From a virus: a stretch of DNA of 64,000 nt. The notes below the pieces were generated by a model. The model did not search any database, had not been told where the DNA came from, and saw nothing but the letters and a program-made list of their open reading frames with translations. The first letter of the stretch is position 1. The number at the start of each line of letters is the position of its first letter. The position numbers were made by a program, and so were the translations under genes. The stretch lies in the IMG/VR virus record IMGVR_UViG_3300032897_000001, positions 36,795 to 100,794 of that record. One strand, given 5' to 3'. Below are positions 34,718-49,995 of the stretch, piece by piece.

Positions 34718-35512
34718 TCATGGAGGATACGTTGCTTGCACACTCAGCGGACTGATTTTCAAAGTTCCCGCAAACATCTGCGGTGCGACAACAACTTGAT
34801 TCACTTGTACATGTGCATCAATCGTCCATCGTAGTTCGTATTGCATTTCGCCAAACACCTGCGACATCTGGCGAGGATCATCCGCGTAAAGCGGCTTTAC
34901 ACCGTCATAGGGCAAAGCCAGTGTTCCGCCGATAGGGATGGGCGCCCATCCTTGTGGTGTGGCGCCGTACCCAGAGAAAAACTGAAAAGAGTAGTTATCA
35001 CGAAACAGCGTCGAAATAATCTGCGCATTTTCAGCGCTGTTTGGTCCATATACGTCTATCTGGATAGTTTCCTCAGTCGGCTGCAAAGCCAAAAACACAC
35101 CACAAGCAAACGTCTGTGACGGTATGACACCAAGTGCACCACTGATGGAATATGTACCTGTTCCGCCGGTTCCGCTGATAGTTCCTGTTATATATGTCAC
35201 GGTTCCTGTTGCGAGACCCGTTCCAAACAATTGATTGCCTGCATTGATAGTGCCGTGAAGGATGTTGCTGACATTAAGTGTCGTTCCAGAAATACTACCG
35301 GAAAAAGCACAATCAGCGTAAAGATTTACGTTAGTTTCCAGACGCTTCATCATAATTGGCGTCATTACAACATAGTCTGGTCCTAGCGGACCGGAAACAC
35401 GGTTTTGTTGCCCACGAATAACTTCAACACTTACAGGCAGGACATTTATCAAAAAATTCCTGACTGCCGATAAAACGTCAATCTGTGTTGGCGACGTCGT
35501 GGGGAGCGTCAC
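34718..35512 (-). CDS. Neck / tail terminator protein
   Basis: GQQNRV, IQIDVYG, TLFRD, PLYADDP.Q. Confidence 0.75.
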   Translation of the reverse strand: MTLPTTSPTQIDVLSAVRNFLINVLPVSVEVIRGQQNRVSGPLGPDYVVMTPIMMKRLETNVNLYADCAFSGSISGTTLNVSNILHGTINAGNQLFGTGLATGTVTYITGTISGTGGTGTYSISGALGVIPSQTFACGVFLALQPTEETIQIDVYGPNSAENAQIISTLFRDNYSFQFFSGYGATPQGWAPIPIGGTLALPYDGVKPLYADDPRQMSQVFGEMQYELRWTIDAHVQVNQVVVAPQMFAGTLKISPLSVQATYPP

Positions 35513-35515
35513 AGA

Positions 35516-35812
35516 TCATCCCGCCACGCGATAGTAAAGAATGTCCACCGTTGCTGATCCGGTTTGAGATATGATCAGCACTTGCGAAAGATTGCCACTG
35601 TATTCAAAAGATGACACACCGCCTGCAGAGACACTAAGGGGGAACCCCACAGACGCTGTGGGCGCAACGCCATCATCTCGAAAACGAACGGCATTACTTT
35701 CCACTGTAAGGAGCGCGATCGTTGCCCCTGTGGGCACTGTCAACGCAAGTGCCGTTCCCGATACTGTTAGCTGTTGGTAACCCAACGAGACATATCTTTG
35801 CGGTAAGAACAT
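35516..35812 (-). CDS. Small virion protein, paralogue A
   Basis: LGYQQLT...VPTGAT..L.TVE...VR.RDDG.APT. Confidence 0.75.
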   Translation of the reverse strand: MFLPQRYVSLGYQQLTVSGTALALTVPTGATIALLTVESNAVRFRDDGVAPTASVGFPLSVSAGGVSSFEYSGNLSQVLIISQTGSATVDILYYRVAG

Positions 35813-36106
35813 TCAACCAACCCCGCGATAAAACAAGAGATCCACCGTAACCGAAGTCGCACCCTGTGCAATGAATTGAAGATTGCTCACTGTGCCCGAA
35901 TATTCCAATGGAAGATTCCCCGAGCTTGCTGGCAACAGGGGCTGTCCGGAAAGCGCTGTTGGTGCGGTACCGTCATCCCGCATTCGGACGCCGGAGCCTT
36001 CCACCGTAATAAGCACTGCAGTCGCGCCTGTGGGCACAGTCGGAACCAAGACAGTGGTGCCTGTCAACTGTTGGTAGCCAAGCGGGGCCATAAGCTGGCT
36101 AAACAT
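35813..36106 (-). CDS. Small virion protein, paralogue B
   Basis: Same motifs as 35516-35812. Confidence 0.75.
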   Translation of the reverse strand: MFSQLMAPLGYQQLTGTTVLVPTVPTGATAVLITVEGSGVRMRDDGTAPTALSGQPLLPASSGNLPLEYSGTVSNLQFIAQGATSVTVDLLFYRGVG

Positions 36107-36471
36107 CAGACTTCAAACACCATGCGTTGCGTGATCACGTCGAAAGTCTGGTTTGCTGCAAACCACTCCTGCCAAAATGCATCCGAGATGTCTGTCACAC
36201 CGTATTCGTGTACAGCGAAGTCCTGCGTTGCTGTCTGTTTGAGACGGGATACTGTATCTACTACGCGTTTATGTGTGGCTGTTGCCACGTCCCGTGATGG
36301 CGTGCGGACTGCCTCTGACTGTGGCAGCAACGTCGGCTCTCCAGCGGGTCCAGATAGCTGTACAGTAATCGCTCGCCCATTAGGACGATGGAGAGCAAGC
36401 ACCATTCCACCGGGCCATCTGCAGGCTATTTTGGCCATGTTCTGTCTCTCCTGAGAAGGTGTGTCAGTCAA
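36106..36471 (-). CDS. Hypothetical protein related to 47348-47887
   Basis: IACRWPGG.VL...YG.T.I...FW.EW resembles VACKLPQGVIL...YALT.GI..DFWEQW. Confidence 0.65.
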   Translation of the reverse strand: MTDTPSQERQNMAKIACRWPGGMVLALHRPNGRAITVQLSGPAGEPTLLPQSEAVRTPSRDVATATHKRVVDTVSRLKQTATQDFAVHEYGVTDISDAFWQEWFAANQTFDVITQRMVFEV

Positions 36472-36907
36472 CTTGGTGTGCGATGCTGTTCACCATGACA
36501 GCCGTATCAATCAAAGGTTTATCAAAACCCTTTTTCTCTATCGTAACGGGAGAAAGTGCGGGTTCCACCAGATCGTTTATCGATTGCCTGAGTTGCCCTG
36601 CAATGGCGTCACCAGCTTGTCCTAGAGTCTGCTTGGCATTGTAATTGTTTGCTAAAAGAAGCCGCGCAATCGCCCCAGGCCACTCATTTTCATGCTTGGC
36701 AATCATACGGCGGAAGAACGGTCGTGGTGGCTGTTTGCGTGACGGCACGCCAAATTCATTCATCGCTGCAACCAACGGCACGGATGTTCCGTCCGGATAC
36801 GTCGCGTTTTCCATAAACCCGACTTTCAGCAACTTTCCATTTCTGATATTCTTGGTTATGTCGGCAAGTCTGACAACGATCTTGCTACCACCTTTAAGCC
36901 GTGCCAT
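36464..36907 (-). CDS. Neck / tail completion protein
   Basis: VGF.E.ATYPDG..V..VA..NEFG...PPRPF.R...KGFDKPLIDT. Confidence 0.8.
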   Translation of the reverse strand: MARLKGGSKIVVRLADITKNIRNGKLLKVGFMENATYPDGTSVPLVAAMNEFGVPSRKQPPRPFFRRMIAKHENEWPGAIARLLLANNYNAKQTLGQAGDAIAGQLRQSINDLVEPALSPVTIEKKGFDKPLIDTAVMVNSIAHQVD

Positions 36908-36911
36908 CTGC

Positions 36912-37286
36912 CTATCTCAGTTGTTCTGTTACAGAAATCTTCACCCAATCGGGCCACAACTCCATGACAGATGTGGTCAGCCAAATTGTGCCATCAGGAA
37001 ACGTGATAAGATCACCACCCTTTTGAGAAAGTCGCACAATAGCGTCAACTTCTCCGTTGAGATAGATGACACGGCTGGAGCCTTGGATGTTCAAGGCTTC
37101 TAATTGCCGCAGATCACGTGTCGTCAATTCCTGGACTTGTGCGATAGCAGTAAATGGTGTCGCATATGTCGGAACTAGTGTGCCGTCTGCGGCAGGTGCT
37201 GCCGCCCCTGTAGATATACGAACGGTTATATTAATCATGGGATTGACTGCGGTAATATTGCCAGAAACAATCCCATGAAGATTCAT
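36912..37286 (-). CDS. Head closure / head-tail joining protein
   Basis: MNLHGIV...I..VNP...QVQ.L...GGDL...W.....E.WPDW. Confidence 0.78.
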   Translation of the reverse strand: MNLHGIVSGNITAVNPMINITVRISTGAAAPAADGTLVPTYATPFTAIAQVQELTTRDLRQLEALNIQGSSRVIYLNGEVDAIVRLSQKGGDLITFPDGTIWLTTSVMELWPDWVKISVTEQLR

Positions 37287-37692: not shown

Positions 37693-37935
37693 TTATCTTA
37701 TGTCGCCCCTACGCGCACGATCTTCCACATATCCTTTTGCTTCGGCAAGGTTGTCAAAGCCCTTCAATCTCCGGTCTCCATCATGTACATGATAGCGGTC
37801 CCCCTTTCTGCGGATGTCGCAAGTCCCCCATTTCATACTATCACCATCACGGAGCCGATAAGCCGTGCCAAAGTCCCGAGCAACGCGCCGCGGCTTGACA
37901 GCGTCCATTGCCAATCTGCCATATCTGCCGCTCAT
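37693..37935 (-). CDS. Small basic protein with MSGRYGRLAMDA leader (putative internal head protein)
   Basis: Leader shared with 55523-55852 and 55166-55507. Confidence 0.6.
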   Translation of the reverse strand: MSGRYGRLAMDAVKPRRVARDFGTAYRLRDGDSMKWGTCDIRRKGDRYHVHDGDRRLKGFDNLAEAKGYVEDRARRGDIR

Positions 37936-38852
37936 GCAACCTTCCTATTTTCCACAGGTTCAATTCCGATCATTTCCAGCGCATGCCCTATACACGCTTG
38001 GGGCGAAAACTTTTCTTTGAACCTTGCGAATTGGGAAGCGTGAACCCCGCGCCATGCTGCTTTAGCCAAAAGAGCGTCTTGATAGAACGCCTCTAAAGAT
38101 TCTGAAAACTTAATTACCTCATCCCATGGTTTAGATAAAAGATGTGGTTCAGCAATGACCGGGCGCCCGAGACACAGCGCTGTATTACAGCGCGACGAAG
38201 AAACCAATCCCATTTCTTCGTGTTTCCTGATTTGGACAAGAACCTTTGCCTCTCGCATGATCCTGTCACGTTCCACCTGACTGGTAAACGTTGCCTCTAT
38301 CCGCACAGCTTTCGGAGAGCCTGAGTATCTTGCAAGTCTTTTAAGTATTCTTAATCTGCGAGTTGAAAGTGATCCAAAGAACCCAAAATCAAATAGCGGT
38401 TCTGTATAATCAAAAGCCCGCACCAGTGTCGGCGCATATCCTAATTCCACATAGGCAGCCGGCGCAAATTGTCCATACCATTCACCACATCCGGGGACTA
38501 GATAGAATATCCCATTGAAGCATTTTGCTGCATCAGGGAACGTTGCTTGTCTCCGCACCATTTCAGGATCGCGCCCATGATTGAACCCTTTCGGTGTCGG
38601 CTCTTCTGTTGCGATACAAATAAATCTGGCACCTTGCGCATATGCCTCATTTATCATTTGCGCACTGATTGGTGTAAAACCCTCAATAATAACATTTATA
38701 CCGGCGCCATTGCAAAGAAACTGATCGTTCTTGGGCATAAACACAACTTTGTGCCCGAGCGCTTGAAGTTGATGTCCGATGATACCCATCGGATCTTCTA
38801 GAGAACGCTTGCCCAGATCGTTGTGGTTGAAGAGATTAAACAGAAACTGCAT
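37932..38852 (-). CDS. Putative glycosyltransferase (GT-B, CgeB-like C-terminus)
   Basis: FDFGFFGS...RR..IL, ERD..M..AK.LV, S.R...AL..G.PVIAE. Confidence 0.65.
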   Translation of the reverse strand: MQFLFNLFNHNDLGKRSLEDPMGIIGHQLQALGHKVVFMPKNDQFLCNGAGINVIIEGFTPISAQMINEAYAQGARFICIATEEPTPKGFNHGRDPEMVRRQATFPDAAKCFNGIFYLVPGCGEWYGQFAPAAYVELGYAPTLVRAFDYTEPLFDFGFFGSLSTRRLRILKRLARYSGSPKAVRIEATFTSQVERDRIMREAKVLVQIRKHEEMGLVSSSRCNTALCLGRPVIAEPHLLSKPWDEVIKFSESLEAFYQDALLAKAAWRGVHASQFARFKEKFSPQACIGHALEMIGIEPVENRKVA

Positions 38853-38867
38853 GGTGCGGGTTCACCA

Positions 38868-39596
38868 CTATGCGGCAATAAAACGAATTGTCTCGCGCGT
38901 TCTCGGATCATCCGGGTAACGATCACCAAGCGCGGCACGCGGCAACGGGCTAAGTTTGTCCCATCCATAAGATGCTGGGGGAACGCTGACACCCCAACGC
39001 GCCCACGCGATCGTGCGGCGCTTTCTCTTTGGCATAAGTCCACGATGGATGTTGCTCGTATCCGAAAGGAACAACGTCCCTGCCGGCCCCAATATGGTCA
39101 CACACTCTCCAGTGTCCGGACGTCCTTGGTGTGTTCCTCGGATAAATTGATGTGGTCCATCGTTCTCATCCACAACGTCCGTGCAGTACATGAATAAAGC
39201 AAGGAAACGCACATCATCAGCGTCTCTGTGCCAATCCTGGATATCTCGCTTAGGCTGATGATTGGGCTCACAATTGAAAGCATTAAACGAATATAACACA
39301 GAAGGAGATTCAAGATAACTTTCCGCTATAGGAATGAAACTTATTGCTGTCTCCAGGAATTCCGGTGCAGATATGACATCCCATATGTCATAACTTGTCC
39401 AGGGATGACTACCAATTGGCACCGGGTCCGGTCTTCCTTGACGGACATGATTCTGATAAACAGGCTTGTTCGATAAGTGCTGTATAAATTCATTCACAAA
39501 AGCAAACCGCTGAGGCAACACAACAGCGCCATCGCGTCGGAGAGTCTCAACGATTTCTGTATTAATCGTAGGACTTTTGTTCTTTGCTTCCAGCAC
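38868..39596 (-). CDS. Fe(II)/2-oxoglutarate dioxygenase, PhyH-like
   Basis: WHRD (HxD), F.Y.TDV....GPH.FI.GTH, G.AGT.F..DT...HRG. Confidence 0.82.
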   Translation of the reverse strand: MLEAKNKSPTINTEIVETLRRDGAVVLPQRFAFVNEFIQHLSNKPVYQNHVRQGRPDPVPIGSHPWTSYDIWDVISAPEFLETAISFIPIAESYLESPSVLYSFNAFNCEPNHQPKRDIQDWHRDADDVRFLALFMYCTDVVDENDGPHQFIRGTHQGRPDTGECVTILGPAGTLFLSDTSNIHRGLMPKRKRRTIAWARWGVSVPPASYGWDKLSPLPRAALGDRYPDDPRTRETIRFIAA

Positions 39597-40878
39597 CGCA
39601 GATATCCTCTATTTTGTTTTTTATTCTGATACGGCATTGATTTGCATCATTCGCCGTTCTAAATGATCGGAGCACATTTGTGCGCGAGGTTTCGGACCAT
39701 TCTGCCGGATCAATCCCCGCTGCAAATGCGTCGATCAAAACTTCATTTGCATCCCAAGCCTGTTGGTTAAGCCTGAAAAGTTCATTCTCTTGTTCCGCGA
39801 CATTCGGCCATGTGCCCACGATGTGGTCGCGGACTTCCTGTAGCGCGTCCGTTTCACGATAAAGAAGGTGCGCCTTAGATGGCAATTTTGCTGCCTTCAC
39901 CCGCAAAATCGTCAGTCTGTCAATGATGTCGCCCGGCGTGCTCTGAGTCTCCAGCCGTGTCAAAGGTGCATAAGTCGGTTCCGGACCGTGTGCATTTCGA
40001 CCGTTTACAATCATTTCCAGCACTTGGCTGTGATTGTTGCTTTTCGTCAAAAATTCCTCAATATCGTATGTGTTCCCGTCAATCTTTCGAGTCATCCGAT
40101 AGGGGAACGTTGACGAAATAGGTAGCGTATGCCCGGAACCCTCTAACGATTGTGTCACAATCGTTTTTCGGCAAGGCACCTGCCCACAAACGATAGTCTG
40201 CATTAATCCACAGTTGGCGCCGATAACCCACCCTGCCAATGCGGCCAACGGCGCCACACAACGCAATGGGATTTTTGTCGGATCATTCCACAGGACAACC
40301 CGCCCGCTCACCTGCAGCCGCGCGGCCAATTCATGCCAAAACGACGTTGGAGTGTTCAGCCACGAATTGGCATGCGGTATCAAGAGGACTGTCTTACCCT
40401 CCACGACGCCCAAGTCCGCTGCGATCTGCTTTGCTTCTGCCGCAGCTTCTAAATCTGCCCGAGGGAGCGTTGGGACGGTCGCTGGATGCAGTCCCATGAT
40501 AAGGGCGTACATTGCCACGTCCGACATGAAATGGTGCGCCACGCAGTGATCTGGGCGCACTGTGGCAACAGACGGGTGGACAAAGACGGGGACACCGGGC
40601 CGAAGAATCTGAACTCCACGACCAGCCGCAGCATGTGTTAGAGAATTGATGTCGGAATCGGGGATATCTGCCAAACGATTCCAACCACCAGCAAACAGCT
40701 TCGCAAGATCACGGTGGGATTCCTTGACCACCAGGAATAGCTTACGCCCGTCTGTGCAGTATTTGCGCCGAAAGGCGTCACATAAAGACGCCACGATGTA
40801 GGTGTCTCCCAGACCATAGGAAGACACGAGAACGTAATCGCTGTCAGTTGCTTCGGCTATGAGATAATTGGGTGTCAT
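39562..40878 (-). CDS. GT9/heptosyltransferase-like glycosyltransferase fused to a DUF6165-like helical domain
   Basis: GLGD motif, VLLIP.A.S, VIG..CGL; C-terminal PGDIIDRLTILRVK...N...WD. Confidence 0.65.
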   Translation of the reverse strand: MTPNYLIAEATDSDYVLVSSYGLGDTYIVASLCDAFRRKYCTDGRKLFLVVKESHRDLAKLFAGGWNRLADIPDSDINSLTHAAAGRGVQILRPGVPVFVHPSVATVRPDHCVAHHFMSDVAMYALIMGLHPATVPTLPRADLEAAAEAKQIAADLGVVEGKTVLLIPHANSWLNTPTSFWHELAARLQVSGRVVLWNDPTKIPLRCVAPLAALAGWVIGANCGLMQTIVCGQVPCRKTIVTQSLEGSGHTLPISSTFPYRMTRKIDGNTYDIEEFLTKSNNHSQVLEMIVNGRNAHGPEPTYAPLTRLETQSTPGDIIDRLTILRVKAAKLPSKAHLLYRETDALQEVRDHIVGTWPNVAEQENELFRLNQQAWDANEVLIDAFAAGIDPAEWSETSRTNVLRSFRTANDANQCRIRIKNKIEDICGAGSKEQKSYD

Positions 40879-41498
40879 TATCGAACAATCCAAGCAATTC
40901 CCAACTCATCCCCGATCATCTGCACACCATGGCCCCGCGTATTGAGCATATCGACGAATTTCCACACCTGTATTTCGTCATCATATGTCGGCCGCTTAAG
41001 TGCATCATGCATTGCAATAATACCACCTGATCGCACTAACTGTCCGTAATCATGGAAGTCCACAGACACATCATCAAAAGTATGTCCCGCATCAATAAAC
41101 AACAGATCCAATGATCCATAGATTCCCTTACCGCCGATTTGCTCTATGACAGTGTTGTATGTCTCAACACTGTGGGTATTTCCGACTATGATGTTTTGTG
41201 GTCCAACGCGACTAAGGAACTGGTCCACCGTTGCTGCGGAATTATCTACAGTCCAGACTTCTTTGAACATCGCTTGAAACACGTTGTGAAGTGCACCGGG
41301 AATGCCCAGCCCTAGCTGCAAGCACGACTTATTCAAGCCCTTGTCTGAAAGGACACGTGCGAATTCGTGGAACTCTGTCCGGTTCTGTTGAATCGCAGGA
41401 CGATATTCGGATGTCCTGTCCTGTGACCTATGATCATCGTGCCAACCCCAATAGGGGAGAAATCTTTTATCATTGGCGATATCGTCGAACACAGACAT
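40878..41498 (-). CDS. Class I SAM methyltransferase (Methyltransf_24-like)
   Basis: LQLG, DLLFIDAGHT...V..DF..Y..LVR.GGIIA.HD. Confidence 0.82.
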   Translation of the reverse strand: MSVFDDIANDKRFLPYWGWHDDHRSQDRTSEYRPAIQQNRTEFHEFARVLSDKGLNKSCLQLGLGIPGALHNVFQAMFKEVWTVDNSAATVDQFLSRVGPQNIIVGNTHSVETYNTVIEQIGGKGIYGSLDLLFIDAGHTFDDVSVDFHDYGQLVRSGGIIAMHDALKRPTYDDEIQVWKFVDMLNTRGHGVQMIGDELGIAWIVR

Positions 41499-41503
41499 GG
41501 GGA

Positions 41504-42991
41504 CTACTCTGCCGCTTGGCGGAAAAGGCGCCGCGGTAACGGCGTTGATTGAGCCTTGGCATACGCCGCCGCGGCGGGTCCGAATTTGTATGTGAGCAAT
41601 TCAATCTGTTTTTCGGATGAAAAATATGCTTGGTGTGCCGCGTCTCGGAATTGAAGGATATCCGTGGGATTCAACTTGTCTGTTGGCAGAGGCTGAAAGT
41701 CCTCAGCATGCTGTGCATAGTTCCCCCACCGATCCGGAAGCGGCTGGCCTGTGCTCACAGCCTCATCATACAGCGGCGATCCGGGATATGCGGTCGCACA
41801 GTAGAAATTCGCCCAATCCGATCCGATAGCAAGCGCCATATCCAACGTCAGTTGCATGGATTCTGCGTCATCCTGTGGAAGTCCGAAGATGTAGTTTGCA
41901 ATGACGTTGATTCCCGCGGCTTGTATCCTGCCTACAATGTCCTTGATATCGTTTGTCCGTAAACGCTTTTCTGCACCATCCCTGACAGTCGGATCTGCCG
42001 ACTCAATGCCTAGAGCCAGCCACTTGATACCCGCCTTCCGAAGAAGTGGCAGTGTTCCTGCCCGGACTGTATCCACTCGGGCATATGCCCAAATATTCAA
42101 ATCAGTCCCAGCATTCGGAATTGTTTCGATAATCCGTTCGCAAATCTCACTGTAATGCCGTTCATTGAGAACGAACATTTCATCAATGATCTTGAACGTT
42201 CGCACACCGTATTGGGAATAAAGAAACTCTATTTCCTTAACGACATCTGCCGGATTGCGCATGCGATATCGTCGCACGCCGAATGGCGCATTGATGCAAC
42301 AGAACGAACACGAATAGGGACAACCCAGCGACGTGTAAATGCTTGCATATGGCTTGCGCCCGGTTTGATCATCCAGACACTGCCACCCGTGCGCACGATA
42401 CTTCTTCATTGGAAGAAGTTCCCACACATCACCGTGCAGTTTGGACAGATCTTCAATCAATGGCGCCCGGGCATTGATCCTAATGCGCGCACCATCACGC
42501 CAAACCAGTCCCGGAACATCTTCCAACGCGCTACCGGATAGAAGTCTACAAACAGTCTCCGGACCCTCCCCGACGCACACATAGTCAACGTGCTCACATT
42601 CGCGCATGGTTTGATTAGGCAGCGCCGAAACGTGTCCACCTACTACAAGGACTTTCGCTGCACACACGGATTTGATTTGGCGCGCCGTATCGTAAACAGC
42701 TTCCATTTGCTGCGTAGAAGCGGAAGGCTGGTGCCCATACGCGCACAAGCAGACAAGGCGCGTATCCCCCATGAAAAGATCTAACGCCACTTTTGATGGC
42801 GTTAGATTTTCTGCCTCAGCATCAACGATCTTTACAGTAAATCCGCGGTCCCGCACATAGCCGGCTATCAACCTTGCCCATAGTGGCGGCTCAGCCGCCG
42901 CATCATCTGCGACTACGCCATAACACGTAGCCCGTGCGTTAGGGTTGACGATAACTAGATGCGGGTCCAGACTAAATATTTCCGTGTTCAT
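41504..42991 (-). CDS. Cobalamin-dependent radical SAM enzyme (class B methyltransferase-like)
   Basis: B12-binding domain (PPLW, GG H.SALP, GEG) plus TSLGCPYSCSFC (CxxxCxxC), LGIES, IFGLP. Confidence 0.9.
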   Translation of the reverse strand: MNTEIFSLDPHLVIVNPNARATCYGVVADDAAAEPPLWARLIAGYVRDRGFTVKIVDAEAENLTPSKVALDLFMGDTRLVCLCAYGHQPSASTQQMEAVYDTARQIKSVCAAKVLVVGGHVSALPNQTMRECEHVDYVCVGEGPETVCRLLSGSALEDVPGLVWRDGARIRINARAPLIEDLSKLHGDVWELLPMKKYRAHGWQCLDDQTGRKPYASIYTSLGCPYSCSFCCINAPFGVRRYRMRNPADVVKEIEFLYSQYGVRTFKIIDEMFVLNERHYSEICERIIETIPNAGTDLNIWAYARVDTVRAGTLPLLRKAGIKWLALGIESADPTVRDGAEKRLRTNDIKDIVGRIQAAGINVIANYIFGLPQDDAESMQLTLDMALAIGSDWANFYCATAYPGSPLYDEAVSTGQPLPDRWGNYAQHAEDFQPLPTDKLNPTDILQFRDAAHQAYFSSEKQIELLTYKFGPAAAAYAKAQSTPLPRRLFRQAAE

Positions 42992-43895
42992 GCTGCTTGA
43001 ACATCCGATATCCCTTGATCAGCTCAAGAATGCCGTGATCAAGCGAATATTTGGGACTCCAGCCGGTTGCCTCAATCTTGGTATTGGACACGATGTAGTC
43101 GCGCTTGTCCGGATCTTCCTTCCCTGCAATCTCTGCCCATGAAAACGGTGTGTGCGCCGCGATCCGCTCACATAGCTGTAGTTTCGTTAGGTTTGCATCC
43201 GACAAACCCACATTGTATATCTGCCCGCGCATTGTGTCCCAGTTCTTCAAAACATGCACGAACGCACATGCCGCATCCCGGACATGTATAAAGTTCCTGC
43301 GGAACCCTGCCTCGAAAAGCGTAATCGCCTGATCACGAACCGCGCGCAAAACAAAGTCATTGACAAGGAGATCCGTGCGCATTCGCGGGCTTATGCCGAA
43401 CAACGTCGCAAGCCGCAGACTTACGGCATTGCCACGGTTCATAATGATTCTTTCGGCTTCAACTTTTGTCTGACCATAGACACTCACCGGACGCAGCGGG
43501 GAATCTTCTGTGCACTCGCCATCTCCGCCAATGCCATAACCGCTGTTGGATATCGGGATAATGATAGGCTGCGTCGGTGCAAAATGTGCCAAGCTTTCGA
43601 TAGCCTCCACATTGACACCCCAAGCGGCTGCGGACTGTGTGTCGCACAGCGGCGCGCCAACCAAGGCAGCAAGAGGCATGATCACGTCTGCGTCACTTAA
43701 TACGGCACGCAGCAAACGCGTATCCCGCACGTCTCCCCGGTGGATTTGAAGGCGTTCGTTGGCACAGTGTGCCGCTAGGCTTGGTACGCCCCAGGAAAAG
43801 TCATCAAGAACGTCAACGTAGTGTCCTTCCGAGAGCAGTTTTCCGACAAGGACGCTACCTAAGTAGCCTGCTCCCCCGGTAACAAGAATCCTCAT
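42972..43895 (-). CDS. NAD-dependent sugar epimerase/reductase (extended SDR)
   Basis: ILVTGGAGYLGS, YGQTK (YxxxK), RLAT.FG.SPRMR.DLLVN, R.FIHV.D. Confidence 0.9.
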   Translation of the reverse strand: MRILVTGGAGYLGSVLVGKLLSEGHYVDVLDDFSWGVPSLAAHCANERLQIHRGDVRDTRLLRAVLSDADVIMPLAALVGAPLCDTQSAAAWGVNVEAIESLAHFAPTQPIIIPISNSGYGIGGDGECTEDSPLRPVSVYGQTKVEAERIIMNRGNAVSLRLATLFGISPRMRTDLLVNDFVLRAVRDQAITLFEAGFRRNFIHVRDAACAFVHVLKNWDTMRGQIYNVGLSDANLTKLQLCERIAAHTPFSWAEIAGKEDPDKRDYIVSNTKIEATGWSPKYSLDHGILELIKGYRMFKQHEHGNI

Positions 43896-44995
43896 AGCAC
43901 ATCCCTCATCACGTCAATTGCCTTCTCAATCTGTTCTGACAGATCAAGCGGACCGTTCCCAAGGAACAAACCCATATCGTGGATTTGATCCGCGCGTGGT
44001 GTGGGGTATTTTGCCCAGGCGTTCCCGTAATGATGCTTATGCAGACTGCCACCAGTCGGCAACCGACAATCAATGCCAGCTTCGCGGAATTTCTTAACCA
44101 AGGTATCGCGAATGTACGGACTTCGTACTTCGAATTGAATCCCGAACGGACTCTGTGTTCCATTCGAGACCGGAAATTTCACCGGCAAATCTTCCGCCAT
44201 GTTTTGAAAGAGTGCCAAGTTCTGCCGGCGCTGTTCAATAAACTTTGGCAGCTTTTTAAGCTGTTCCCGGGCGACCGCCGCATGGATTTCCGTTGGACGA
44301 ACATTGTAACCCATCAGCCGGAAATCATATTCCTGCGAAAAAGCCTGCGGTTTCTGTACATCCCGTGTCCAGCCATGCGAACGCAGCATCCGACACAGCC
44401 GGGCGCACTCATCATCATTGGTAAGGATCACACCGCCTTCAATAGCGGACAGTTGATGTGACCAAAACAGCGAGAATGTATTCATCAGACCCCGTGTTCC
44501 ACAGAGTCTGCCTTTCAGATCAACTGCACCGATGGATTCACAGTTGTCTTCAATGATGGGCCAGGGCGCTTCTCCCCAAAAGTGGGCAGGATTCCCCAAG
44601 ACAGAGCACACGACTTGAAGGCTGATCGCGGGTTCCCCGTGGTATTGGCCCACGTTCCACTGGTCATTACAATCTGCAACAACCAACTCAAGTCCGTGCT
44701 GTACCAAAGGCGCATAAGTTGTCGCCCACGCAAGCGCGGGGACAACCACCTTATCACCCGGATGCAGCGGCCTTTCGCTCCGGTGGAACATCGCAGCAAC
44801 TGCGATCAAATTAGCCGATGAACCGGAATTCACCATGATAGCATGACGCTTCAAATGCCATGCCGCAAACTCCCGTTCGAATGCAGCGACTTCCTCGCCC
44901 AGCGTGAACCTGCCCGATGTGCGCACGCGATCAATCGCGCCGTGTTCTGCATCATCCCAGGCCGAATACGCTGTTGGAAAAAACCACTCTTTCAC
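43892..44995 (-). CDS. PLP-dependent DegT-family enzyme, ColD-like NDP-4-keto-6-deoxyhexose 3-dehydratase
   Basis: VNSGSSANL, EDNCES.GA, FSLFWSHQLSAIEGG (His in place of the Schiff-base Lys, as in ColD/E1), LRSHGWTR, GYNVRP. Confidence 0.85.
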   Translation of the reverse strand: MKEWFFPTAYSAWDDAEHGAIDRVRTSGRFTLGEEVAAFEREFAAWHLKRHAIMVNSGSSANLIAVAAMFHRSERPLHPGDKVVVPALAWATTYAPLVQHGLELVVADCNDQWNVGQYHGEPAISLQVVCSVLGNPAHFWGEAPWPIIEDNCESIGAVDLKGRLCGTRGLMNTFSLFWSHQLSAIEGGVILTNDDECARLCRMLRSHGWTRDVQKPQAFSQEYDFRLMGYNVRPTEIHAAVAREQLKKLPKFIEQRRQNLALFQNMAEDLPVKFPVSNGTQSPFGIQFEVRSPYIRDTLVKKFREAGIDCRLPTGGSLHKHHYGNAWAKYPTPRADQIHDMGLFLGNGPLDLSEQIEKAIDVMRDVL

Positions 44996-45519
44996 GCAAA
45001 CTTCTCCGCCATTTCTACAAGGATCGTTGATACTTCACTCTTCAGTGCTTGTTCATATTGAACGAACACACCTTCCGCCGTATGCAGTTTGCATACATGC
45101 ACGGTGTACAGCATTTTCCGGACTTGGTCAGTGAAATCACCTAAGTGCTGCACTCCCGGATTCATCGGATCATCTGTTGCAACAGATGTCCTGATGATAA
45201 CCTTCGGTTTGTACCCACCACACGAATAAATGGGGAGTTTATCCAAGTGGTGTACAAGTTGGCTCATTGCCAATAGAAGGAAATTCCATCTCGGATAAAT
45301 GCACACAGGCAGCGCGCCGCGGAGTGCCAACCCAATGGCAACTCCCATCTGCATATCCTCTGCAACGGGAAACTCTATCCGTTTTTCCTTCGGAACATCC
45401 TGCAATGTTTGAAACATTGCGGTTCCTGGCACAGCGACGGCTTGCCCGATGAACACAGACTTAGGATGTTCTGCAAGCATCCTCATTGCCCGGCATAGTT
45501 CTGTTGCGTAATCAGTCAT
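44992..45519 (-). CDS. TPP enzyme beta subunit (transketolase/E1-beta pyrimidine-binding domain only)
   Basis: FIGQ.V, IEFPVAEDMQMG.A.GLAL.G..P, PGVQH. Confidence 0.85.
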   Translation of the reverse strand: MTDYATELCRAMRMLAEHPKSVFIGQAVAVPGTAMFQTLQDVPKEKRIEFPVAEDMQMGVAIGLALRGALPVCIYPRWNFLLLAMSQLVHHLDKLPIYSCGGYKPKVIIRTSVATDDPMNPGVQHLGDFTDQVRKMLYTVHVCKLHTAEGVFVQYEQALKSEVSTILVEMAEKFA

Positions 45520-45677
45520 ATGCCGTCTGCCATACTGATCAAAATCGCGTTGTAAACAGCTTCCTTACCGCCCGAAGCTAACAACTCTTCAAATTTATTG
45601 ATCTGTTTGGCGTTAATTACAACGGTTCCCGGTTCTTCAGGAATCTTGTGTGGTTCTTCATTACGCAAGGACAACAC
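45516..45677 (-). CDS. 53 aa hypothetical protein between the TPP subunits, absent from the ORF track
   Basis: GTG 45677 to TGA 45516, ATGA-coupled to the beta subunit. Confidence 0.45.
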   Translation of the reverse strand: MLSLRNEEPHKIPEEPGTVVINAKQINKFEELLASGGKEAVYNAILISMADGI

Positions 45678-45683
45678 CCCGTT

Positions 45684-46289
45684 TTAGAACTGTACCCGCT
45701 TTCCCGCGCCCGAGTGTGGCCACGGCAGCACATAATCATATCGCATGACATGCGGCGAAAACCTGTTGGAAAAATCCGGTTTTCCCCATACCTGATCTGT
45801 GTCAGTACACACAGACTTCCCGTTGTCTTCGATGACAAAATTAACGGGCAATTCGTGTCCCTCCACATAACGCAGGCATTCATGAAACATGCCTGTGCGT
45901 GCAGTCATGTCGCCAACAAAAACCCAAACATATCCGGGTTGTCTTTCGCGCTGTAGCGACAATGCCAAGCCAACAGCGATCGGAAGCACGCCACCAACGA
46001 TCGCAGATGATAGGATGCGGTAATCCGGATAACACAGCGTGATGGAGCGTCCGGACAAGATGTCATCTCGCAGGAGTTCCGGGGGAACACCCTTAAGCAA
46101 GCAGTGATAATGTGAACGCCATTGTGTCAATACCCAGTCTTCTTCGTGGATATTGTCGAATATATTGATTAACTGTTTCTCGTTTCCCCCAGCCAAGTGA
46201 ACGGGCGCCCGGATCATTCCTGCATCAAAATCCGCAGCAACCAGTCGTTCAAACTCTTGCAGAGATTCGGCAGTGTGAGAAGTGATCAT
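45684..46289 (-). CDS. TPP enzyme alpha subunit (dehydrogenase E1-alpha-like, short)
   Basis: PVHL..GNE, WRSHYH.L.KG, SAIVGG, GD...EDN TPP-binding motif. Confidence 0.85.
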   Translation of the reverse strand: MITSHTAESLQEFERLVAADFDAGMIRAPVHLAGGNEKQLINIFDNIHEEDWVLTQWRSHYHCLLKGVPPELLRDDILSGRSITLCYPDYRILSSAIVGGVLPIAVGLALSLQRERQPGYVWVFVGDMTARTGMFHECLRYVEGHELPVNFVIEDNGKSVCTDTDQVWGKPDFSNRFSPHVMRYDYVLPWPHSGAGKRVQF

Positions 46290-46292
46290 CGG

Positions 46293-46736
46293 TTAATGCT
46301 TGCTATTCCACACATCCCAGTTCCCAAATTCTGGGACCAGACTTTCCGCAAGCGCGTCAATTTTGTAATCGTGACGTCCGCCGTCGATTTCAGCCAAGAC
46401 ATTCTTCGCTGTGTTTCGGACGCCATTGATGGAGTGGCTGAACTTCAACAATTTGTCTTGTGCATCGCTGCCTTCCCGGGCTTTTGATTCATTCAACCAA
46501 ATTTCCCGGTTCGATAGCATGATGACGATAATTGCATGTACCTCGCGCGCACTGATCTTTCGATCCAAATTTGACAGGATCAAATCAATGTCATGCATAA
46601 TAAGTTTCATCTCAGCGTAGTATTCGTCCTTACGCTCGTGAATGAAAATTGCCTTTTGCTGAACAATCGTCAACCTGTCCACAAGATCGGACAGTGTGGG
46701 CAGATATTTTCGCTGCGAGGAATTGGCTGCACTCAT
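46293..46736 (-). CDS. DUF6165-like helical protein
   Basis: LSDLVDRLTIVQQK...N.EIW..E...N..R...KN; same motif as the C-terminus of 39562-40878. Confidence 0.7.
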   Translation of the reverse strand: MSAANSSQRKYLPTLSDLVDRLTIVQQKAIFIHERKDEYYAEMKLIMHDIDLILSNLDRKISAREVHAIIVIMLSNREIWLNESKAREGSDAQDKLLKFSHSINGVRNTAKNVLAEIDGGRHDYKIDALAESLVPEFGNWDVWNSKH

Positions 46737-46764: not shown

Positions 46765-46868
46765 GTGTGTTGGCGCGGTTATCTCAACCCGTGTGCCACA
46801 TAACGGCGGGTGAAATTACGTGGCACGCACCTGGAGAAGTACCTGGGGAGACTACCGCGCCAACACAC
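46765..46868 (-). ncRNA. Rod-like structured RNA/inverted repeat upstream of the sugar cluster
   Basis: Perfect 15-bp arms 46765-46779/46854-46868; inner 12-bp stem with G-U pairs that form on the minus strand. Confidence 0.6.
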
Positions 46869-46908: not shown

Positions 46909-47343
46909 TCAACCAACATATGGATACCAAGGACTCACCGGGCGCCGCGGTCCGCGGAGATATCGCATGGTGCGATAAGGTGCCGCGGCTGCCCAATATG
47001 CCGAACCATACTTGGTTTGCTGCCACCACTGCGGCGTTCCCGGGGGATAACTGTTTTCGGTAGAAACCGAAACCGATCCTTCAGACGCATTGGAAATGCG
47101 TCCAACGATACTGGATACGGGTTCGGTATTCGTACCGAAATACAGTTTTGCCAAGTGCGCCACGACTTGCCACAAGAACACGGTTTGAGCCTGTACACTT
47201 GATACAGGTCCAGTGCCGTCGTTCCTGTGATAGATCGTCGCTTCGTTGAAAAGCATCGTCGCAGTTGGCGCCAGCACCGTCGTAGAAAACTCCGGATATC
47301 GGGCAATCCACCCTGTGTAATCAAACGCAATCGTGACGCCCAT
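46909..47343 (-). CDS. Head-tail adaptor, DUF4054 family
   Basis: F...YPEF, AH.A.L, VGRIS.ASEGSVSVS, W.QT.YG..YW. Confidence 0.88.
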   Translation of the reverse strand: MGVTIAFDYTGWIARYPEFSTTVLAPTATMLFNEATIYHRNDGTGPVSSVQAQTVFLWQVVAHLAKLYFGTNTEPVSSIVGRISNASEGSVSVSTENSYPPGTPQWWQQTKYGSAYWAAAAPYRTMRYLRGPRRPVSPWYPYVG

Positions 47344-47911: not shown

Positions 47912-49003
47912 TTACACGCCAATCATGCTGGCAATAGCGAACGGCTGTCGGATCACAGCACCCCAAGTCCCCGCAAGAACCTTCTGGCGGAAACTGGACA
48001 GATGGCGCACGATAGGCTGTGCGTGCATCTTTTCGTTATATGCACAGTAACCAGTAATCTGTCCCTCAATTTCTTCCGCGATCAACTGGACAAGGTTTCC
48101 GGCAGACTGTCCCTGTGGGTTCGATGTAGAAGTGGTTCCGTACTGAACCGCTGTCTCGAATCTGATATTCGGGAAGTTCTTCTTCAACAGATCAAACACG
48201 TTCACATTGAACGTGTTCGTGAAAGTCAATGCGACTTCGGACTGTGGCGACATCGCAAGAACCAGCTTCGTATCGGCTTCAACCAATCCCTGGGTTTGGT
48301 TGATCAACTGATAAAAGATAGCCTGAATGTCTGCAAACACTTCGTTGGCAGTGGCATTGATGCTACCGCCCGCGGTAAACCAACGCGTGCCGCCTGCTGC
48401 CTTGGTGGCAGGCGTAATGCTCGAATTCAGCGCAGGATCGTTCAACAGACCATAGTTCTGCAATCCGCCGACGCCAAAGAAATATGTCAGGTTGGAGAAC
48501 TTGTTGAGCACTGTCGCCGCGCCCTGGTCAATTTCGCTAACCCAATTGATGCGCGCCAAACCCGCGCGTTCCAGTTCGCGATCGCCATATTCCTTGATGG
48601 TCTGGAATAGGTACGACTGACGCTGGGGCCAGTTGGTGTTGACGTTAGCGCGGCCATTTTCGGCAAAGTCGCCATAAGACGACACTTCACCGGTATGTTC
48701 GATCGTGGGGAACATGGCAGTTTCGTCAAGCCACGTTCCCTTCCGAACCTCACCGAAGATCACCGCTGCCCGGTTGGGAGCAAACAGGATCTTAAACACG
48801 GCAGGATCAATCATGGTCGTGAGGAATTGCGGAACGGCAGAGTTTGACTGCGTTGCCAAAACAGGCAACGCGTCAATCGCCAAATCGTAGTTCCGCTTGA
48901 ATTCCTCCGGCATGTAGGTTATGACATCCGGAAGGGAAACGCCCATCGCTGCGAGATGGGCAGCGTCCGCGGCGAACGCGGCCTGGGCTTCTTGCAAATT
49001 CAT
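47912..49003 (-). CDS. Major capsid protein (DUF2184 / HK97 fold)
   Basis: IFGEVRKG.W, E.TGEV.SYGD, RQSY.FQT...YG.RE, YGLLNDP, GTWGA.IR.P. Confidence 0.9.
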   Translation of the reverse strand: MNLQEAQAAFAADAAHLAAMGVSLPDVITYMPEEFKRNYDLAIDALPVLATQSNSAVPQFLTTMIDPAVFKILFAPNRAAVIFGEVRKGTWLDETAMFPTIEHTGEVSSYGDFAENGRANVNTNWPQRQSYLFQTIKEYGDRELERAGLARINWVSEIDQGAATVLNKFSNLTYFFGVGGLQNYGLLNDPALNSSITPATKAAGGTRWFTAGGSINATANEVFADIQAIFYQLINQTQGLVEADTKLVLAMSPQSEVALTFTNTFNVNVFDLLKKNFPNIRFETAVQYGTTSTSNPQGQSAGNLVQLIAEEIEGQITGYCAYNEKMHAQPIVRHLSSFRQKVLAGTWGAVIRQPFAIASMIGV

Positions 49004-49020
49004 TTTTATTCTCCCTTGCC

Positions 49021-49995
49021 TTAACCGTAGATCCAACTCGTAATCTTTACGAGTTCGCCGGTTGCACCTGTTGACACAGCAATGTATTTCGTCTGAACGT
49101 TGGTCGCCGCAGTGATCGTTGAATTCAACGCAATAGTTTGCGTTGCGTTCAAGATGTACGTTCCTGCACCACCGGACCCGGTACCAAGTGCCGTGATAAT
49201 GGCTGGAACCATGCCAGATGCAGTTCCTGTTAACGTATCCCCGACACCTATGGTGCCTGTTACAGTTGCCGCTGTTAGCAACCCGTAGGACTCTGTTAGC
49301 AGCGCACTGGCAACGGACTGCTCTGCGATGCTCACAGCATACGTGCCAACACCACCCACTGTTCCCGTCAACTGGGAAACAATAGACGTGCCCGTGGCAA
49401 CGCCTGTGCCGCCTGAGAGCGTGCCGCCGACAACGATACTGCCACCACTCACGGTTCCCGTAACAGTCAGGACGGCTCCGGTAATCGAACCATTGAATGT
49501 CACAGTCTGCGGCCCGATACTGCCAGTAACAGTTGCCGCATTAAGCGTGCCTGATCCTGCGTCTGCTGCTGTTTGCGTACCGGCACCAAAAACCACGGAA
49601 CCATCCGCATAATTGGCAAACGCGAACATGCCCGGAGTCGCGGTTGTTGCACCGGCATTCCGGACGAAAAACCCACCCGAGATAAACAACGTGACCGGGA
49701 ATCCCGCAGGAACCAGCATGCTGTATTCTTGCAGATACTGCGTGATAAGTCCCTGCTGTTCCCGATGGACAAATCCGCTGGGAACGCCTGTACCATTGTT
49801 TGACACAGATGCGGGCGCACCTTCGGTGTCGATTTGCGTATTATTCACCCACGCAAAACGACCAACGGTGACACCTGCCGGACCTGCTACAAGACCACCT
49901 GCACCAGCCTGCAAGGTTGCCCGGGGATTTGCGTCACAGAAATCACCTGCAACAGCAATCGCCGGCTGAACATAGACTTGATTGGGAAAAGGCAT
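49021..49995 (-). CDS. Capsid decoration/cement protein with inserted repeat domain
   Basis: PA.AVAGDF..ANP, L.AG..GV.VGRFAW, GFVHR.QQ.LIT.YL, G.LVKI; directly upstream of the MCP. Confidence 0.8.
   Translation of the reverse strand: MPFPNQVYVQPAIAVAGDFCDANPRATLQAGAGGLVAGPAGVTVGRFAWVNNTQIDTEGAPASVSNNGTGVPSGFVHREQQGLITQYLQEYSMLVPAGFPVTLFISGGFFVRNAGATTATPGMFAFANYADGSVVFGAGTQTAADAGSGTLNAATVTGSIGPQTVTFNGSITGAVLTVTGTVSGGSIVVGGTLSGGTGVATGTSIVSQLTGTVGGVGTYAVSIAEQSVASALLTESYGLLTAATVTGTIGVGDTLTGTASGMVPAIITALGTGSGGAGTYILNATQTIALNSTITAATNVQTKYIAVSTGATGELVKITSWIYG

Follow-up and report, generated by a model that had tools for sequence, protein, structure and literature searches.

The window analysed here, 64,000 nucleotides of the IMG/VR record IMGVR_UViG_3300032897_000001, belongs to a complete 100.8-kb genome of an uncultured myovirus of which no cultured relative is known. 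All ten ORFs of the cluster are present on the minus strand at 37932–46736, co-oriented and mostly overlapping, with junctions of 3, -4, -4, -20, 5, -1, -35, 15 and -4 nt (negative values being overlaps), and lie between neck and head genes. A sequence-only reading had described ten sugar-biosynthesis and transfer genes embedded among head-tail joining genes, and the ORFs, strand, coordinates and flanks bear this out. Upstream lies a DUF4054 virion structural protein (46909–47343, minus strand; PF13262, E 1e-9; phrog_302, E 4.8e-24), as that reading had proposed. The gene directly downstream, which it had named a head-closure gene, encodes 80 aa without any family match; beyond it, at 36464–37286 (minus strand), are a phrog_1912 head protein with a weak match to the E217 gp28 collar and a phrog_222 Neck1/tail-completion protein, followed by the neck terminator and sheath.

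The GC content of the cluster matches that of the rest of the genome. The 157-nt gap ahead of the cassette contains a long rod-like RNA hairpin (46765–46868, minus strand; the 171-nt stretch that bears it has an MFE of -76.2 kcal/mol, z = -5.5 relative to shuffles), possibly an attenuator or processing site. From the tight packing of the genes, and from the lack of any enrichment of promoter-like or terminator-like sites in the cluster, we infer that the cassette is co-expressed late with the structural genes.

The first cassette gene (46293–46736, minus strand) encodes a small helical, phage-specific protein of 147–152 aa that occupies the first position in every relative. None of its 731 homologues (~60–80% identity) carries a Pfam domain. 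Its earlier description as DUF6165-like is weakly supported, by recurrent sub-threshold matches of the homologues to DUF4254 and DUF6165 and by an Atlas lead. Next are two proteins matching PF00676 and PF02779, encoded separately but adjacently, beside the ColD-like and SDR genes. The 201-aa E1-alpha-like TPP (PP-domain) subunit (45684–46289, minus strand) matches PF00676 (E 5.7e-11, covering profile positions 6–171 of 300) and TIGR03182 (E 9.5e-22), and its translation contains the GD...DN diphosphate-binding motif. The 175-aa E1-beta-like (Pyr-domain) subunit (44992–45519, minus strand) matches PF02779 Transket_pyr (E 1.2e-5) and has no Transketolase_C domain. The gap between the two genes is a 164-nt spacer with a small ORF of ~50 aa (45516–45683, minus strand) whose stop overlaps the E1-beta start; the ORF has no homologue among the relatives compared, in which the spacer length ranges from 0 to ~940 nt. 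Against phrog_34187, E1-alpha aligns to positions 4–197 and E1-beta to positions 242–403. The E1 identities given previously stand, but E1-beta, which had been called truncated, is short in all phage relatives and full length in the bacterial counterpart; both subunits are minimal conserved forms and not a damaged gene.

The fourth protein (43892–44995, minus strand) belongs to the DegT/DnrJ/EryC1 family (PF01041, E 2.2e-51) and is closest among solved structures to ColD (2GMS, E 6e-68, aligned over residues 6–362). The exchange of His for the Schiff-base Lys noted previously is confirmed: the residue aligned with ColD His188 is a His that is invariant across 12 homologues, and the S-H of the query pairs with that of wild-type ColD, a site at which N and K are found in the mutants 3B8X and 2R0T. 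With both the fold and the His features present, the protein is a predicted PMP-dependent sugar 3-dehydratase.

The adjacent extended SDR (42972–43895, minus strand; PF01370) matches PDB 6VO6 end to end (residues 2–306, E 6.4e-98, 331 bits), whereas its second-best PDB match scores only 87 bits. It carries the Y-x-x-x-K motif as Y-G-Q-T-K. Enzymes of the 4,6-dehydratase type carry an Asp-Glu dyad, T-D-E in RmlB; the query lacks this dyad, with S-N-S at the aligned position, where 6VO6 has T-N-S. On the strength of the depositor's molecule name, we take 6VO6 to be the C4-dehydrogenase Cj1427 of C. jejuni, which acts on GDP-heptose, and the phage protein is predicted to be an NAD-dependent GDP-sugar C4-dehydrogenase of this type. 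Cj1427 oxidises C4 of GDP-D-glycero-D-manno-heptose and partners a ColD-like C3-dehydratase in C. jejuni HS:5, the two enzymes converting GDP-heptose to GDP-3-deoxy-4-keto-heptose in vitro (PMC10680097). Enzymes of the Cj1427 type hold a tightly bound NAD that is recycled by 2-oxoglutarate, and their substrate is GDP-heptose (PMC10680097, PMC9978623).

The SDR match changes the expected precursor and product. The entire 100.8-kb genome encodes no NTP-transferase and no second SDR, consistent with the earlier proposal that the precursor comes from the host. However, given the match to 6VO6, the product of a host 4,6-dehydratase would not be needed: as predicted from these homologies, GDP-mannose or GDP-heptose of the host is enough for the phage to produce the 4-keto sugar itself. 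The 3,6-dideoxy product envisaged at first accordingly gives way to a 3-deoxy hexose or heptose, which the SDR assignment makes more likely.

The protein at 41504–42991 (minus strand) is a class B (B12-binding) radical SAM enzyme with both expected domains (PF02310, E 1.2e-14; PF04055, E 4.3e-14) and an invariant CxxxCxxC (C224, C228, C231). It has >550 bacterial homologues at 50–57% identity, usually encoded beside SDR and ColD genes. Its best NCBIfam matches, all below cut-off, are BchE, HpnJ, AprD4 and ApyD, and its best PDB match is AprD4. Since ring contraction, cyclisation and dehydration are also within the repertoire of B12 radical SAM enzymes, and BchE, HpnJ and AprD4 are non-methylating, the C-methylation proposed from the sequence would be one option only, although the family assignment holds. 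Two further tailoring genes were identified as first described. The class I SAM methyltransferase (40878–41498, minus strand) is of the Methyltransf_24, CmcI/O-MT-like type (PF13578, E 1.2e-8, with weak additional matches to PF01596 and PF04989), and its gene is found only in some relatives (L021, L026 and L027). The PhyH-family Fe(II)/2-oxoglutarate dioxygenase (38868–39596, minus strand; Pfam E 0.0022; similarity to PhyH clusters of 0.95 by Atlas features and TM 0.84 by structure) has homologues in the clusters of many relatives.

The remaining two proteins are predicted from AF2 models to be phage-encoded glycosyltransferases of GT-B fold. The 443-aa protein (39562–40878, minus strand; pLDDT 84.8) consists of a ~300-aa transferase part fused to a helical domain that is remotely homologous to the first cassette gene product (hhalign E 6.6e-5). 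The best structure matches of the N-terminal 300 residues are GT9 heptosyltransferases (Z 15.1, 14.6, 13.0 and 11.8 for 3TOV, WaaF, WaaC and TibC as a group, against Z ≤10.3 for other GT families; Foldseek E 5e-6 to GT9 enzymes), in agreement with the earlier GT9-like call. The N-terminal G-x-G-D is invariant, with the G-D motif shared with GT9 enzymes, and only 16 homologues were found. The protein differs from GT9 in its extra C-terminal DUF4254/DUF6165-like domain and in its Pfam result: neither it nor 14 homologues matched GT9 (PF01075) or any other Pfam family at E up to 10, and we therefore call it GT9-like only. The second transferase (37932–38852, minus strand; 306 aa, pLDDT 90.6, 551 homologues), also correctly anticipated, has a GT-B/GT4-like fold. 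PimA (Z 18.2) and T4 alpha-glucosyltransferase (Z 17.8) are its tied best matches, and tetrahydrobiopterin glucosyltransferase, SenB, BshA and AviGT4 are also structural neighbours. As PimA has a lipid acceptor and the T4 enzyme a DNA acceptor, the fold is uninformative on what is glycosylated.

The synteny survey that had been suggested showed that six of the genes, those for the helical protein, the two short E1 subunits, the ColD-like enzyme, the SDR and the B12 radical SAM enzyme, form a core. This core recurs among the neck genes of at least 15 independent related viral contigs, and the radical SAM proteins of this phage clade group together (SH-aLRT 86). The methyltransferase, the GT9-like transferase and the PhyH-like dioxygenase are added to this core variably. 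The GT-B gene lies between neck genes in 30 viral loci, with or without the cassette, and is missing from several relatives that share the neck module; it is a frequent accessory of this module that can occur without the cassette.

Five of the core genes (E1-alpha, E1-beta, ColD, SDR and radical SAM) also form a conserved but uncharacterised bacterial cassette, seen in most of the best 80 loci of 554 radical SAM relatives, mainly in Rhodospirillales (Azospirillum halopraeferens, Magnetospirillum, Tistlia) and Bryobacterales. The enzyme families are the same, their order is conserved, and the SDR and radical SAM proteins are ~55% identical to those of the phage. In contrast to those of the phage, to which they are only ~30% identical, the bacterial E1 subunits are of full length; the loci are cellular glycan loci that hold GT2 and GT1 genes and ManC, and tblastn gave no match in them to the small helical protein. 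In A. halopraeferens the neighbours of the cassette are ManC (TIGR01479, 682 bits) and a kinase of HddA-like type, a context indicative of GDP-linked chemistry.

Together these assignments suggest a pathway that probably converts a host GDP-sugar to an unusual 3-deoxy sugar with a carbon branch and then transfers this sugar. Close homology predicts that the Cj1427-like SDR oxidises a GDP-manno-sugar of the host, GDP-mannose or GDP-D-glycero-D-manno-heptose, at C4, and the ColD-like enzyme, on homology and its His-for-Lys signature, would strip the 3-OH to give a GDP-3-deoxy-4-keto sugar. The two minimal TPP subunits are then expected, on the analogy of AviB1/B2 and Pau11/12, to decarboxylate a 2-oxoacid, probably pyruvate, and add the resulting acyl carbanion to C4, giving a 4-C-branched tertiary alcohol; that no reductase for the branch carbonyl is present counts against the scheme. 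The B12 radical SAM enzyme would alter an unactivated carbon, most simply by C-methylation, although its chemistry is uncertain and the non-methylating character of its sub-cut-off matches counts against this. The methyltransferase and the PhyH-like dioxygenase may tailor the product further, and the GT9-like and GT-B enzymes would transfer the finished sugar, most likely to at least one exposed protein of the virion, so that progeny particles would bear a rare-sugar coat. The choice of acceptor is the weakest of these steps. The earlier prediction of a phage-made, TPP-branched and probably methylated deoxysugar is supported.

The first two predicted steps, from a GDP-manno-sugar to its 4-keto and then 3-deoxy-4-keto form, are those of capsular heptose modification in C. 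jejuni, where Cj1427 acts with the ColD-like C3-dehydratase of HS:5 (PMC10680097); the phage SDR is likewise paired with a His-type PMP 3-dehydratase. The phage differs from C. jejuni in lacking both a C3/C5 epimerase and a C4 reductase: its 4-keto sugar is predicted to be captured by the TPP enzyme instead and then passed to the B12 radical SAM enzyme. A TPP enzyme gene beside genes for a 3-deoxy-4-keto NDP-sugar is shared with the C4-acyl-branched sugar pathways of YerE (yersiniose), ErwE (erwiniose), AviB1/AviB2 and Pau11/Pau12 (PMC4753412, PMC9306805). For avilamycin and paulomycin, the C4-acetyl branch is proposed to be added by PDH-E1-like pairs (PMC4753412), and the two-subunit layout in the phage resembles AviB1/B2 and Pau11/12, a likeness of architecture and gene context. 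The phage differs from these pathways in its GDP/ColD-type scaffold (against CDP or TDP), a C6 that is probably still oxygenated, subunits cut to bare PP and Pyr domains, and the lack of a branch ketoreductase. The same minimal E1 enzyme occurs at ~40% identity in the cyanomyoviruses S-SM2 and P-TIM68 as a 'transketolase central region-containing protein' (phrog_34187), in clusters with heptose-pathway and epimerase genes. There, however, E1-alpha and E1-beta are fused in one protein, the clusters lie outside the structural module, and tblastn of these loci gave no match to the ColD-like, SDR or radical SAM proteins of the phage.

The position in the neck module favours virion proteins as acceptor. 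In a hydropathy scan, none of the ten proteins showed a clear membrane-spanning segment (the top 19-residue window, 2.23, adjoins the TPP motif of E1-alpha), and this, together with co-production with virion proteins, makes a virion protein the most likely target. A comparable case is that of the mycobacteriophages Che8, Corndog and Myrna (Freeman et al. 2023, cited in PMC12619734), where, as in our phage, the glycosyltransferases are phage-encoded and non-essential, and are proposed to decorate exposed virion proteins. The present, putative case differs in a probably Gram-negative host, a multi-step sugar synthesis pathway and a location among neck-module genes. TibC, among the GT9-like matches, is a protein O-heptosyltransferase acting on autotransporters. 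The sugar may have a common acceptor in a Ser/Thr/Gly-rich display domain that recurs in the decoration protein, the sheath, the terminator and fibre-like proteins. Since several relatives without the GT-B gene still keep this domain, it is not a dedicated acceptor and glycosylation would be dispensable for assembly, with GT-B serving an accessory function. We take the cluster for a genuine accessory cassette that has long resided in this phage lineage, inserted in the late head-tail-joining operon; combined with the above pathway and the virion as acceptor, this explanation is in our view evenly balanced between right and wrong.

GT9 enzymes mostly target the LPS core. The product could be attached to the infected cell's own envelope (LPS core or O-antigen, capsule, S-layer) or to its flagellin, masking receptors so that superinfection is blocked or progeny are not lost on debris, or replacing or mimicking a sugar of the host's own making. 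The GT9 relatives, which are mainly LPS heptosyltransferases, fit such remodelling, as do the bacterial glycan loci with GT2, GT1 and ManC that hold the five-gene core, the heptose/LPS-type clusters in which cyanomyoviruses keep their fused short E1, and the dispensability of GT-B in some relatives, as for a moron-like accessory gene. Nonetheless, genes for a flippase, a polymerase, a ligase and a Gtr-type membrane protein are all missing from the cluster; with neither a clear membrane span nor a GT2 domain, the ten proteins do not resemble Gtr-type/O-antigen seroconversion systems, which comprise a membrane flippase, a bactoprenol transferase and a serotype-specific transferase in the membrane. 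Late expression in an apparently lytic 100-kb myovirus would leave scant time for a glycan to reach the surface, and the genes are fixed in the neck module rather than tied to lysogeny or early genes. We consider envelope remodelling rather unlikely.

A free or nucleotide-bound sugar analogue that hits host metabolism, as a chain terminator, glycan-synthesis inhibitor or GDP-sugar sink, is improbable. The transferases would then use a small-molecule acceptor, as do some structural neighbours of GT-B (tetrahydrobiopterin glucosyltransferase, SenB, BshA and AviGT4), and PhyH and B12 radical SAM enzymes are common in natural-product pathways; but two transferases and a conserved position in a structural operon are hard to account for in this way, no export function is present, and we know of no precedent for such a pathway in phages. 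Packaged DNA, the alternative acceptor raised earlier, fares worse still. Glycosylation of a modified phage base by GT-B and/or the GT9-like protein, evading restriction, would suit the T4 alpha-glucosyltransferase match and the presence of a methyltransferase and an Fe/2OG dioxygenase, as in TET-type systems. However, the dioxygenase is PhyH-type, the methyltransferase is Methyltransf_24/O-MT-like, and the genes lie in the late structural operon rather than the replication module. The whole genome has no TS-family hydroxymethylase (PF00303) and no C5 DNA methyltransferase (PF00145), with positive controls for both; Tet_JBP (PF12851) was also without a match in the whole genome, a weak absence as its control was silent too. 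Because no enzyme making a hydroxymethyl base was found, DNA glycosylation is highly improbable. Finally, a chimeric assembly, with bacterial DNA misjoined into the phage contig, might be suggested by the 50–57% identity of the core genes to bacterial homologues but has a negligible chance of being correct and was rejected as far as sequence data can show: contigs from the independent Logan assembly run across each border of the cluster at equal depth (12.2 and 13.9), the cassette sits in the same module in the 15 or more independent metagenome contigs, phage copies cluster apart from bacterial ones, GC is uniform, and the GT-B stop overlaps the start codon of the following flank gene.

The virion-glycosylation reading can be put in a more specific form: that this myovirus clade O-glycosylates its own virions with a 3-deoxy-4-C-acyl-branched, C-methylated hexose or heptose, which the GT9-like and GT-B enzymes attach to the Ser/Thr-rich display domains that head, neck and tail proteins have in common. 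We offer this tentatively, as unlikely to be right in every particular. The clade is large and uncultured, and its hosts are probably Gram-negative. If true, virion glycosylation would for the first time be known beyond the actinobacteriophages, the sugar would be previously undescribed, and the product of a widespread, uncharacterised bacterial cassette would be revealed.

The source record is 100,794 bp long and is rated complete by CheckV, and the ten-gene cluster (window 37932-46736) lies on the minus strand within its late structural operon. In gene order, a minor head/decoration protein (phrog_2122, PF23982; window 49021-49995) is followed by the major capsid protein (window 47912-49036), with ~50% identity to its counterparts in Klebsiella, Aeromonas and Pseudomonas myoviruses, then by a phrog_2085 protein and, directly before the cluster, a DUF4054/phrog_302 virion protein. 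Beyond the cluster come two small ORFs without a family match, a phrog_1912 head protein (weak match to the E217 gp28 collar), a phrog_222 Neck1/tail-completion protein, the neck terminator and then the sheath. Neither the cluster DNA (megablast) nor the GT-B protein (tblastn) found a match among 50,697 GenBank phages, pointing to a lineage without a cultured member. Two pairs of paralogues were also seen: tandem genes of 97 and 98 aa (53% identical; window 35516-36106) just upstream of the neck terminator, present in some relatives only, and adjacent long ORFs of 491 and 636 aa (window 28171-31557) that are paralogous across ~350 N-terminal residues (24.5% identity).

The cluster is a real and unusual one, and it is well conserved. 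All ten ORFs exist and are closely packed (junctions of 3, -4, -4, -20, 5, -1, -35, 15 and -4 nt); only the two TPP-enzyme genes stand apart, separated by a 164-nt spacer with a non-conserved small ORF. A frameshifted, once-fused E1 gene was ruled out here, since the relatives likewise have E1 as two genes, with spacers that vary. Searches of Pfam, NCBIfam and PHROGs confirmed the E1-alpha (PP), E1-beta (Pyr), DegT-family, extended SDR, B12-binding radical SAM (rSAM) and Methyltransf_24 assignments of the sequence-only reading. The cluster is not a chimeric assembly: the cassette (first gene, E1 pair, ColD-like, SDR and rSAM genes) recurs across independent metagenomes, the rSAM tree argues against an artefact, and independent Logan contigs, assembled from the source run, span both borders with equal depth (12.2 and 13.9). 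Among sequencing runs, a search listed just the source wetland DNA sample as a holder, and no RNA run. The GC content of the cluster is that of the remaining genome. Inside the rSAM gene, a 12-bp perfect inverted repeat (window 42779-42825) coincides with a break of the independent Logan assembly into two contigs with a 13-nt overlap. A long rod-like RNA hairpin (window 46765-46868, minus; MFE -76 kcal/mol for a 171-nt stretch, z -5.5) occupies the space that separates the DUF4054 gene from the start of the cassette, and may lower or process the transcripts entering the enzyme genes.

Some of the proteins needed evidence beyond domain searches. The PhyH-like call is weak by Pfam (E 0.0022) and is backed by language-model features (0.95) and the predicted structure (TM 0.84). 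Two proteins without any Pfam match were assessed from predicted folds, and both glycosyltransferase calls held. In the 443-aa protein (pLDDT 84.8), a GT-B domain at the N terminus is followed by a C-terminal helical bundle, and the predicted structure is GT9-like (3TOV, Z 15.1; WaaF, 14.6; WaaC, 13.0; TibC, 11.8; other families ≤10.3); the 306-aa protein (pLDDT 90.6) is predicted to be a GT4-like GT-B enzyme. The product of the first gene is helical, and none of its 731 close homologues has an annotated domain. Remote homology links its family to the C-terminal domain of the GT9-like protein (hhalign E 6.6e-5), and both gave recurrent matches to DUF4254 and DUF6165. These matches were sub-threshold, so the earlier label 'DUF6165-like' for the first gene is defensible but weak; we found no function for either DUF in the literature. 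Profiles of the GT-B, GT9-like and first-gene families gave no meaningful match when searched against PDB sequences.

The enzymes of the cassette point to a GDP-linked 3-deoxy sugar. The SDR, the only one in the genome, matches PDB 6VO6/6VO8 along its full length (E 6e-98), and the next-best solved structure scores 87 bits; going by the depositor's molecule name, we take 6VO6 to be C. jejuni Cj1427. The DegT enzyme is nearest to ColD (2GMS, E 6e-68), with a His where ColD mutant entries have Asn or Lys, and this His is invariant in 12 of the 12 phage and bacterial homologues compared. In C. jejuni HS:5, a ColD-like C3-dehydratase yields GDP-3-deoxy-4-keto-heptose (PMC10680097; PMC9978623). The phage SDR is not a 4,6-dehydratase, as judged from the 6VO6 alignment and the missing Asp-Glu dyad of those enzymes, which is absent at the aligned position in both the phage SDR and 6VO6. 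The 3,6-dideoxyhexose inferred from sequence alone is less likely; the C6 oxygen is expected to stay, and the product should be a 3-deoxy hexose or heptose. The phage genome encodes no nucleotidyltransferase, which agrees with the earlier proposal of a host-derived precursor and, together with an SDR of the 6VO6 type, indicates that a host GDP-manno-sugar is all that the phage needs.

The chemistry of the cluster is moderately well predicted. By close homology to characterised enzymes, a GDP-manno-sugar would be oxidised at C4 and then deoxygenated at C3. By analogy with YerE and the PDH-E1-like pairs AviB1/B2 and Pau11/12 (PMC4753412, PMC9306805), the TPP enzyme would then add a two-carbon or longer acyl branch to C4. 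A B12-rSAM reaction would follow, with C-methylation as its simplest reading, although the best family matches of the rSAM, all below cut-off, are BchE, HpnJ and AprD4-type enzymes. In some phages only, the methyltransferase and the PhyH-like enzyme would tailor the sugar by O-methylation and hydroxylation, respectively. No branch-carbonyl reductase is encoded; speculatively, NADH bound to the Cj1427-like enzyme could reduce the carbonyl. The cluster is a variation on two known kinds of system, phage glycan genes and acyl-branched deoxysugar pathways: known enzyme families are joined here into a pathway not characterised in any organism, and located in a phage neck module.

IMG/VR scans anchored on the rSAM, GT-B and capsid proteins gave ~70 related loci. 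The block from the first gene through E1-alpha, E1-beta, ColD-like and SDR to rSAM was found in at least 15 contigs of the clade, co-oriented and always within the neck module, at one of two alternative junctions (after DUF4054, as in the window, or after GT-B). Around it, the related loci commonly have PhyH-like genes and a further GT-B paralogue, and the methyltransferase and GT9-like genes occur in a few contigs only; the cluster is a composite of this recurrent block with a variable set (methyltransferase, GT9-like, PhyH-like and GT-B). Nine loci have GT-B between Neck1 and phrog_1912 without sugar-synthesis genes in the vicinity, and six relatives from the capsid-anchored scan share the set of neck genes and have no GT-B at all. 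GT-B is therefore often present as an accessory gene, but does not belong to the clade's core. The two cassette junctions, the variable tailoring genes and the optional GT-B mark the neck module as a hot spot for accessory cargo.

The cassettes of the relatives also carry interruptions. In several (the cassette regions of L005, L021, L022, L023, L026 and L027), the genes are 0.4-2 kb apart rather than overlapping, which suggests inserted small genes or mobile elements. Five relatives (L010:8369-10798, L011:7389-9650, L012:2351-4336, L021:16954-19437 and L026:6657-9098) have an in-frame insertion of 280-327 aa in the rSAM gene, exactly inside the CxxxCxxC iron-sulfur motif. The insertion, absent from the window's copy, starts with C-L-x-G-D-T and ends with V-L-V-K-N followed by Cys; these features and a homing-endonuclease-sized insert are hallmarks of class 1 inteins. 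Rfam found no intron in six relatives that would explain the split rSAM genes; the insertions are read instead as in-frame inteins.

The rSAM profile also found 554 bacterial relatives (50-57% identity), and we fetched the loci of the best 80 of these. They are mostly from Rhodospirillales (Azospirillum, Magnetospirillum, Tistlia) and Bryobacterales/Solibacteraceae, with some Verrucomicrobiota, and in most of the 80 the E1-alpha, E1-beta, ColD and SDR genes lie directly beside rSAM. The cassette of Azospirillum halopraeferens DSM 3675 (L065:4232-13066) comprises full-length E1-alpha/beta, ColD-like, Cj1427-like SDR and B12-rSAM genes. Its neighbours are two GT2 genes and genes for a large GT1 protein, an HddA-like GHMP kinase and a bona fide ManC; they support a chemistry that is GDP-linked, within a locus for cellular glycans. 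We found no paper on the bacterial cassette or its product, and the sugar appears to be undescribed. The rSAMs of the neck-module clade form one group (SH-aLRT 86), separate from the bacterial sequences. The E1 subunits of the phage consist of just a PP and a Pyr domain and have ~30% identity to full-length bacterial E1, compared with ~40% to the fused E1 (phrog_34187) found in heptose-type sugar clusters of the cyanomyoviruses S-SM2 and P-TIM68.

Where the sugar goes is less clear. We consider the chances about even that the acceptor is a virion protein, the destination favoured by the sequence-only reading. In keeping with this, the cluster has a fixed position within the neck module, the stop codon of GT-B overlaps the start of the gene that follows, promoter-like or terminator-like sites are not enriched, and none of the ten proteins has a clear membrane-spanning segment. 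Moreover, a Ser/Thr/Gly-rich display domain (repeats of ~60 aa) is common to the decoration protein (window 49021-49995), sheath (32704-34677; 45% identity over 205 aa), neck terminator (34718-35512) and several fibre/baseplate-like proteins (22784-24841, 21818-22774 and 15728-16897). The domain further matches a part of phrog_38233 (tail fibre), and had no tblastn match among the 50,697 GenBank phages, where low-complexity filtering may mask one. However, the domain is kept in relatives without GT-B, which weakens its reading as a dedicated acceptor. PimA and T4 alpha-glucosyltransferase tie as fold matches of GT-B, so that its fold says nothing about acceptor class, and GT9 relatives mainly serve LPS. 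A host envelope acceptor, to which the last point would lead, is less likely, and a small-molecule or metabolic role is improbable. Glycosylation of DNA is the least credible and very unlikely: the whole genome lacks a thymidylate-synthase-family hydroxymethylase, a C5 DNA methyltransferase and a Tet_JBP match, and the dioxygenase and methyltransferase belong to small-molecule types.

The five-gene core (GDP-sugar C4-oxidase, 3-dehydratase, minimal TPP carboligase and B12 radical SAM) is widespread in the bacterial genomes fetched, with an uncharacterised product, and the phage version, being compact and having minimal E1 subunits, would be a handy route to a new branched sugar as well as to a minimal TPP carboligase. 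To our knowledge, mycobacteriophages are the only phages shown to glycosylate their particles with enzymes of their own, a modification that changes immune recognition. If the cluster is the sugar factory of an environmental myovirus clade, it would extend phage glycosylation biology to another, probably Gram-negative, host group, and would suggest that phages commonly use rare-sugar virion coats, or receptor masking, as an ecological strategy.
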